A DNA stretch of 64,000 nucleotides. Source: an uncultured Acidobacteriota bacterium. Its GTDB lineage: Bacteria; Acidobacteriota; Thermoanaerobaculia; Multivoradales; UBA5704. Every line of letters starts with the position of its first letter. The stretch's first letter is position 1. Both the position numbers and the translations under genes were made by a program. Below are positions 2,530 to 2,993 of this stretch, in pieces. Location of the stretch: assembly GCA_963761805.1 (NCBI GenBank), contig CAVXIV010000014.1, positions 33,217-97,216 of the forward strand, written 5' to 3'. The notes beneath the pieces were generated by a model. It saw nothing but the letters and a program-made list of their open reading frames with translations, did not search any database and had not been told where the DNA came from.

Positions 2530-2993
2530 CCCGAACCTTCCGGGTTCATCCGCGAACCTTCCGGCTTCAACCGGGAACCTTCCGGCTTCAACCGGGAAGC
2601 TTCCGGCTTCAACCGGGAAGCTTCCGGCTTCAACCGGGAAGCTTCCGGCTTCAATCGGGAAGCTTTCGGGTTCATCCCGGAAGCTTGCGGCTTCAACCGG
2701 GAAGCTTGCGGCTTCAACCGGGAAGCTTGCGAGCTTCAACCGGGAAGCTTTCGGCTTCAACCGGGAAGCTTGCGAGGTTCATCCGCGAACCTTCCGGGTT
2801 GGTCCGCGAAGCTTCCGGGTTGATCCGCGAAGCTTCCGGGTTGATCCGCGAACCTTCCGGGTTCATCCGCGAACCTTCCGGGTTGATCCCCGAACCTTCC
2901 GGGTTGGTCCGCGAAGCTTCCGGGTTGATCCGCGAAGCTTCCGGGTTGGTCCCCGAACCTTCCGGGTTGATCCGCGAACGTTGCCGGTTGACG
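2530..2993. repeat. tandem array of about 22 copies of a 21-bp unit (consensus CCGGGAAGCTTCCGGCTTCAA); each unit contains the near-perfect palindrome CCGGAAGCTTCCGG
   Basis: Direct reading of the sequence. The left-half units (ccgggaagcttccggcttcaa) and right-half units (ccgcgaagcttccgggttgat) are approximately reverse-complementary, so the whole array is a roughly 460-bp imperfect palindrome centred near 2760. All six frames stay open across it, which makes real coding unlikely. Confidence 0.9.

Follow-up and report, generated by a model that had tools for sequence, protein, structure and literature searches.

A tandem array of 21-bp units in an uncultured member of the Thermoanaerobaculia, probably a young and lineage-specific non-coding minisatellite

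The window, that is, the whole stretch of 64,000 nucleotides that was analysed, was assigned to the Thermoanaerobaculia (Acidobacteriota) on the basis of its MMPL gene, with genome L001 as the best match (91% at the protein level). Its wider neighbourhood is that of an ordinary chromosome and includes genes coding for a TPR protein, an MMPL transporter, an NHL-repeat protein, CheB, a hybrid histidine kinase, an OmpR-type regulator, a MacB permease and ArsR. The features of the locus are listed in Table 1. They comprise a tRNA-Leu gene, a gene coding for a Cys-rich, RiPP-like peptide of 70 amino acids followed by an intrinsic terminator, an array of 21-bp tandem units, and a gene coding for a secreted protein of 123 amino acids. 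The array starts about 55 bp past the terminator hairpin, in agreement with an earlier sequence-only reading of this DNA, which had placed it just downstream of the peptide gene and its terminator.

Table 1. Coordinates of the features at the locus (positions in the window) and of six further arrays (positions in the respective related Acidobacteriota loci).
Feature	Position	Strand	Basis or remark
tRNA-Leu	1965-2048	minus	Upstream of the array; Rfam
Gene of the Cys-rich 70-aa RiPP-like peptide (upstream neighbour)	2198-2410	+	Present in relatives that lack the array
Intrinsic terminator of the 70-aa peptide gene	2450-2477	+	10-bp GC stem, 3-nt loop, TTTTT; fold z -4.95
Lineage-specific segment	2481-3112		Alignments; array with ~50 bp to its left and ~115 bp of unique sequence to its right
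Whole tandem array	2532-2996		Tandem Repeats Finder, unit table, GC, two-unit pattern, unit HMM
Left subfamily, unit GAAGCTTSCGGCTTCAACCGG	2554-2786		Unit table; identity within subfamily 91%
22-bp unit with an extra A after GCG (GCGAGCTTC)	2722-2743		Breaks every reading frame
Second 22-bp unit with the identical extra A after GCG (GCGAGGTTC)	2765-2786		Unit table
Right subfamily, unit GAASCTTCCGGGTTGRTCCGC, last unit degenerate	2787-2996		Unit table
Putative extended -10 promoter of the 123-aa gene, TGcTATACT	3118-3126	+	Sequence comparison
Gene of the 123-aa secreted protein (downstream neighbour)	3158-3529	+	No known function; widespread in Thermoanaerobaculia
20-22-bp array in L004	5224-5443
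20-22-bp array in L010	14560-14720
20-22-bp array in L011	4540-4860
20-22-bp array in L014	18504-18783
20-22-bp array in L016	17847-18192
20-22-bp array in L031	22098-22241

Both borders of the intergenic spacer are shared with relatives. L001 and a second related contig, L037, both retain the terminator that follows the 70-aa peptide gene and the block GGCGTGMTAYACT in front of the 123-aa gene. Because of the conservation of this block, the motif TGcTATACT is read as the extended -10 promoter of the 123-aa gene, which would leave the array upstream of the promoter and outside the transcript of that gene. Judging from the sequence, the array thus appears to be flanked by a terminator and a promoter and to belong to neither of the predicted transcripts. 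A search of the array for sigma-70-like promoters was negative on both strands, and at gathering thresholds Rfam recognised the tRNA-Leu alone and left the array unmatched; matches to the hairpins obtained at permissive thresholds were rejected as sub-threshold, miRNA-like noise. Exact look-ups of both neighbouring proteins returned no record.

The sequence-only reading had also proposed a search for replication-origin or partition-site features nearby. None was found: the DnaA box TTWTNCACA has no match in the 64 kb, no GC-skew switch occurs at the array, and no Rep or Par gene is present among the neighbouring ORFs. An AT-rich unwinding element is likewise missing, the array having 62% GC and GC-rich flanks. 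Comparison by eye of the unit with the LexA (GTTC-N7-GTTC), FNR, sigma-54 and sigma-70 motifs gave no fit.

The 70-aa peptide carries the leader MKKRKLTLSRETLRNLE and 15 cysteines and belongs to no Pfam family. It is 91% identical in L001 (7948-8157), is also present in L037 (324-536), and has matches of about 45% in L007 and L028. A second small, Cys-rich, precursor-like ORF (MKKTAKKLALSRETVRFLVDRSLEDAQGGSIWSNCYCYYTLYSNCNCENTRECW) lies at 1694-1858 on the minus strand; it shares an LSRETxRxL leader with the 70-aa peptide, adjoins the 3' end of the tRNA-Leu gene, and falls within about 150 bp that are missing from the syntenic L001.

Tandem Repeats Finder described the array as 21.2 copies of period 21 with 90% matches (2532-2978), and anchoring on GAA[GC][CG]TT resolved it into 22 head-to-tail units from 2533 to 2996, with a spacing of 21 bp in twenty cases and of 22 bp in two. 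The core GAA..TT is unchanged in all 22 units. A degenerate two-unit pattern matched 17 times within the array against 0.00 matches expected from dinucleotide shuffles, so that the array, whose tandem units fall in the range of about 10-100 bp, is real and far beyond chance, as the sequence-only reading had it (22 copies of 21 bp). Its GC content of 61.7% compares with 68.9% for the window. The units abut without spacers, in line with the earlier statement that this is not a CRISPR array.

Two subfamilies of units follow each other along the array, and intermediate units of the type GTTCATCC occur at 2533, 2659, 2765 and 2850, the first unit (2533-2553) being of this kind. That the same extra-A variant recurs at a distance of two units hints at duplication of a block. 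The right half contains a higher-order duplication of five units (105 bp), with copies at 2787-2891 and 2892-2996; identity at lag 105 is 0.964 compared with about 0.91 at other lags. Units of one subfamily differ by about 10%, which indicates that the array is not extremely recent.

The internal symmetry attributed to the array by the sequence-only reading was largely not borne out. Each unit had been said to carry a perfect 14-bp palindrome, CCGGAAGCTTCCGG, containing a HindIII site. This palindrome has no occurrence in the 64-kb window; the actual sequence at that place is CCGGGAAGCTTCCGG, with an extra G, and is non-palindromic. The longest exact palindromes within units are GGAAGCTTCC, in three units, and GAAGCTTC, in seven. 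The HindIII site AAGCTT is present in 13 of the 22 units and absent from the rest, eight of which have the non-palindromic core GAACCTTC instead.

The two halves had further been described as inverted relative to each other, giving a 460-bp super-palindrome. All 17 two-unit matches are on the + strand, however, and so is every full-length match of an HMM built on the unit (18-22 bits, compared with at most 11.6 bits on the minus strand). Left and right units share 73% identity when compared directly and in register, and their consensus units agree at 17 of 21 positions. At the best rotation, inverted identity is 70% for left against right, 71% for the left half against itself and 63% for the right half against itself. 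A repeat finder likewise reported about 71% complementarity both between the halves and within the left half, its best arms (194 nt, 71% complementary) being equalled within the left half alone. Since inverted identity between the halves is about the same as within the left half, the complementarity is a property of each unit, independent of how the halves are arranged. Each unit is weakly self-complementary, and neither half is an inverted copy of the other.

When single-stranded, the region forms a single long, imperfect hairpin whose apex lies near 2765 (z about -13 for each strand). Adjacent GAAGCUUC cores form stems of 8-10 bp with loops of 11-13 nt. Such strong folding is expected for any self-complementary repeat. 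The cruciform that the array had been thought capable of extruding is another matter: with arms that are 71% complementary, a cruciform in duplex DNA would hardly be stable, and the two near-perfect arms of cruciform-forming long palindromes are lacking here. The comparison of the 21-bp phasing with iterons fared better, in that the repeats are direct and share one orientation. The two 22-bp units put the halves out of helical phase with each other.

That the array is not coding, as already suspected by the sequence-only reading, is supported by several observations. Two of the six frames are free of stops and the other four contain 2-9 stops, contrary to the statement that all six are open, and no frame runs through the array from a start codon. 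The two 1-bp insertions break every reading frame across the array. GC3 is 0.59-0.64 in all six frames, compared with 0.82-0.97 in the genes of the window. A Pfam search with all ORFs of the array gave nothing above threshold. A search of the concatenated six-frame translation against 5.8 billion proteins returned one weak match and no genuine relative; the match was rejected, its matching part being a read-through into a 10-bp satellite.

L001 is syntenic over the genes for tRNA-Leu, the 70-aa peptide and the 123-aa protein and over the terminator; between the terminator and the 123-aa gene it has a small minus-strand gene coding for a secreted Cys-rich protein, and no array. No homology was detected between the insert of the window and either this small gene or the intergenic region of L001. 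L037, the closer relative by its 123-aa protein (89% identity, P0001), has about 28 bp alone between the terminator and the promoter block, and again no array. With 28 bp at the site in one relative and an unrelated gene in the other, some 630 bp of the window (2481-3112) are private to its lineage with respect to these two closest available relatives. The absence of the array from both argues against an established function; this functional inference covers 64 kb of the source genome and the two close relatives. The insert contains no convincing ORF, and neither L001 nor L037 has at the array site the homologous coding repeat gene that the sequence-only reading had named as evidence against itself. 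Terminal inverted or direct repeats of the insert did not exceed shuffled controls and its flanks are unique, so that there is no sign of a mobile element. The same neighbourhood differs at other points. About 3.2 kb of L001 (3831-7244) are missing from the window at 1224-1278, and together with two other differences near the tRNA-Leu they mark a hotspot for small indels in this neighbourhood.

The search for related arrays was extended to public sequence collections. A strict pattern of the unit had no match in one genome per species for 185,579 species, nor in the JGI metagenome contigs. A relaxed pattern (three GAASCTTCCGG cores at a spacing of 20-22 bp with any filler) had no match in viral contigs and matched 22 metagenome contigs. 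These were rejected as relatives, being either satellites of a 10-11-bp unit, CCGGAAGCTT, or unrelated 21-bp arrays sharing the 11-mer alone, some of which look like coding linkers of the PEAS type; by a rough estimate, 22 matches correspond to the chance level among very many 21-bp arrays. BLAST of the array against phages found no match, and a scan of the window and of 62 loci with the unit HMM revealed no isolated copy, there being no dispersed copy beyond the array in the 64 kb or in the related loci. No description of such arrays in Acidobacteria was found in the literature searched. The genome, metagenome, viral, phage and Rfam searches agree with the sequence-only reading, which knew of no described element with this unit.

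Among the metagenome contigs, the palindromic unit CCGGAAGCTT(C) forms long satellites of up to about 58 copies in L045, L050, L053, L055, L060 and L061, which have 51-58% GC. In L054, L057 and L062, an 81-bp satellite directly adjoins a related GGAAGGTTCC satellite.

Among plasmids, the array was matched by BLAST to the 6.1-kb Sphingobium plasmid pDE7 and its copies. pDE7 (L035, Sphingobium baderi) carries at 2998-3114 a set of 5.3 tandem 22-bp repeats, TGTATCCCCGAACCCTCCGGCG, 54 bp upstream of a Rep_3-family rep gene, a position that identifies them as classical iterons. Over 60 bp, they share 82% identity with the right half of the array, and the right-half unit ATCCSCGAACCTTCCGGGTTG has 17-18 of 22 positions in common with the iteron ATCCCCGAACCCTCCGGCGTGT. 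The resemblance is genuine, but a rough estimate places it within chance, given the number of arrays and rotations compared. No homologue of the pDE7 Rep protein was found in the window by tblastn.

Tandem arrays of similar period are not restricted to the window. In 582 kb of related Acidobacteriota loci, six others with a period of 20-22 bp and 4.5-15 copies were identified (Table 1), all outside ORFs passing the GC3 filter. Periods of 13-19 bp, or longer than 22 bp and not multiples of 20-22, are almost absent from these loci. The units are unrelated to each other and to that of the window array, and their contexts differ. Palindromic cores are present in L004 (TCACA-N3-TGTGA), L014 (TATCGATA/ACGCGT) and L010 (TCGCGA); the L004 array, about 10 units of 22 bp, is upstream of a gene, and the L010 array lies in a divergent promoter region. 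The 20-bp array of L011 has about 16 units with the core GAGAAGGTTATC in both orientations, directly behind a sigma-70-like promoter matching at 10 of 12 positions (4495-4522). A 19-nt inverted repeat of 95% identity (4342-4360 / 4856-4874) brackets the L011 segment 4342-4874, which may represent either a gene for a repeat RNA or an element of the MITE type.

Other repeats of the window are of different kinds. Paired inverted runs of a 9-bp repeat, with about 4.7 copies of AAGGACNTA facing about 4.8 copies of GTCCTTTAG, occur at 26630-26736 and 54177-54272; they form hairpin arms of 33-42 nt with 82-90% complementarity around a loop of about 21 nt. As AAGGAC-type 9-mers are also found in three related genomes (L001 19804-19846, L003 4738-4773 and L004 2277-2323), the pairs look like a dispersed palindromic element family of the clade. 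A 42-bp tandem repeat of 3.5 copies is located at 21247-21392, each unit with the hairpin GGGTGGAGCCCTCCACCC. Finally, a 15-bp repeat of 4.4 copies (TCCATCTCGCCATGG) at 59778-59844 lies inside the minus-strand ORF 59388-60311 and is probably a coding pentapeptide repeat.

We consider it rather probable that the array of the window is a young, lineage-specific, non-coding minisatellite of the VNTR type, situated in a spacer between a terminator and a promoter and devoid of an established function. The blocks of subfamilies, the recurrent 1-bp insertion, the 105-bp block and the degenerate last unit are marks of slippage and unequal exchange without sequence constraint; combined with the absence from relatives and of homologues, they point to a young orphan minisatellite. 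A 21-bp, weakly self-complementary unit would have been amplified by slipped-strand mispairing and unequal exchange, probably helped by its tendency to form hairpins. The array would then have diversified into two unit subfamilies and been extended by duplications of multi-unit blocks. It is probably without a conserved sequence-specific function and neutral or nearly so; if it influences the genes next to it, for instance by added spacing or by incidental binding of proteins, this would be a secondary matter. Some observations go against the minisatellite reading. Units in direct orientation, with a period of exactly two helical turns and with the dyads GAA-NN-TTC / CCGG, fit a protein-binding array; the unit resembles a real plasmid iteron; and arrays of 20-22 bp, at about one per 100 kb in related Acidobacteriota loci, could mean a shared, non-neutral cause.

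These same observations lead to the main rival, which we regard as unlikely. By analogy with known systems, the array would be a protein landing pad of 22 phased sites, either iteron-like for a winged-helix initiator or made of dimer sites on the GAA-NN-TTC / CCGG dyads, and would act in titration, as a decoy, or as a regulatory array for the 123-aa gene. Direct 21-bp repeats without spacers do have the geometry of iterons, the match of the right-half unit to the pDE7 iteron and the invariance of the GAA..TT core would suit a binding site, and some of the relatives' other 20-22-bp arrays, such as those of L004 and L010, combine palindromic cores with a promoter region. Yet no rep, par or transcription-factor gene arrived with the insert of about 630 bp, and the window lacks a Rep homologue, a DnaA box and a GC-skew switch. 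The context is chromosomal and syntenic with relatives that have no array, 22 copies exceed the known iteron sets, the two 22-bp units disturb the phase between the halves, and the likeness to the iteron is within chance by the rough estimate given above. A broader version of the idea, to which we give little credence, is that the array is a newly born, Rep_3-iteron-mimicking member of an undescribed class of lineage-specific 20-22-bp arrays, often with a short palindromic core, scattered in Acidobacteriota, which would serve as multimeric protein landing pads for titration, nucleoid organisation or promoter control.

An error of assembly in the number or order of the units, by which a shorter or different array was collapsed or expanded, seems very unlikely. 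Near-identical 21-bp tandem units are hard to assemble from short reads and the array is known from a single assembly, but its ordered, non-periodic variants, two subfamilies and unique flanks provide unique long k-mers across it, and an error would not create the array itself. It is also very improbable that the array is transcribed into a structured repeat RNA with many small hairpins that would sponge up a protein or stabilise 3' ends, as CsrB/RsmZ or REP/BIME elements do. Shuffled sequences fold far less well than either strand, the GAAGCUUC stems would provide the hairpins, and the unrelated 20-bp array of L011 directly follows a promoter-like site. A repeat sponge RNA would be expected to have a promoter and a terminator of its own, a known family and a protein-binding motif in its hairpin loops. 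In the window array, no promoter-like site was found on either strand; the array had no Rfam match, it is placed after a strong terminator and before the next promoter, and it is not conserved in relatives; the folding is what any self-complementary repeat would give. Least credible of all, and largely refuted already, is a heptad-repeat protein gene or a recent pseudogene of one, in which 21 bp would stand for seven codons (e.g. PEASRIN / ADQPGSF on the minus strand). In its favour are a period divisible by three, two stop-free frames, a minus-strand ORF of 91 amino acids (2757-3032) with a purine-rich stretch upstream of its start as read from the sequence, and the likeness of some unrelated metagenome 21-bp arrays with a GAAGCTTCCGG core to coding PEAS-type linkers. 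Against this stand the two +1 insertions that break every frame, a GC3 well below the at least 0.82 of real genes, unit variants that read as mostly non-synonymous in every frame, the lack of Pfam matches and protein relatives, and the absence of such a gene from the array site in relatives.

As a private minisatellite, the array is of a familiar type, though its unit is unusual. It could be used as a strain-typing marker and offers a natural example of the amplification of a hairpin-prone unit. If it were true that arrays of 20-22 bp are systematic and protein-bound in Acidobacteriota, they would add a new level of genome organisation or regulation to a phylum that is little studied and mostly uncultured.

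The array shares traits with several known systems of repeats. Like the plasmid centromere arrays (F sopC, 12 x 43 bp, and R1 parC), it has many tandem units with a short dyad, but its unit is half the length, it is not on a plasmid, and no parA/parB-type or sopAB operon is found among its neighbours. REP/BIME elements are likewise extragenic, located just past the end of a gene and made of hairpin-forming units; they exist, however, in hundreds of dispersed copies of alternating orientation, often with a GTAG or CGTC head, whereas the array, a single locus within the 64 kb, has one orientation, shows no GTAG head in its units, and has a best exact palindrome of 8-10 bp in 7 of 22 units in place of the imperfect palindrome of REP/BIME. 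The iterons of Rep_3-type plasmids (R6K, 7 x 22 bp; pDE7, 5.3 x 22 bp) share its geometry, being spacerless direct repeats within the iteron range of 17-22 bp, here of 21-22 bp or about two helical turns and phased with the helix. Iteron sets usually count 3-9 copies, compared with 22 in the array, which has no adjacent rep initiator gene, AT-rich unwinding element or DnaA box and is chromosomal and syntenic. Bacterial non-coding minisatellites or VNTRs, e.g. the mycobacterial MIRU/ETR loci, are a further counterpart. MIRUs are dispersed, unlike the array, which is found at a single locus in the 64 kb examined, and the unit of the array is weakly self-complementary and unrelated to any described family. 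In both, non-coding units of tens of bp are arranged head to tail in an intergenic spacer, unit variants come in blocks with higher-order duplications, and presence or absence differs between close relatives, as it does at the syntenic site in L037 and L001.
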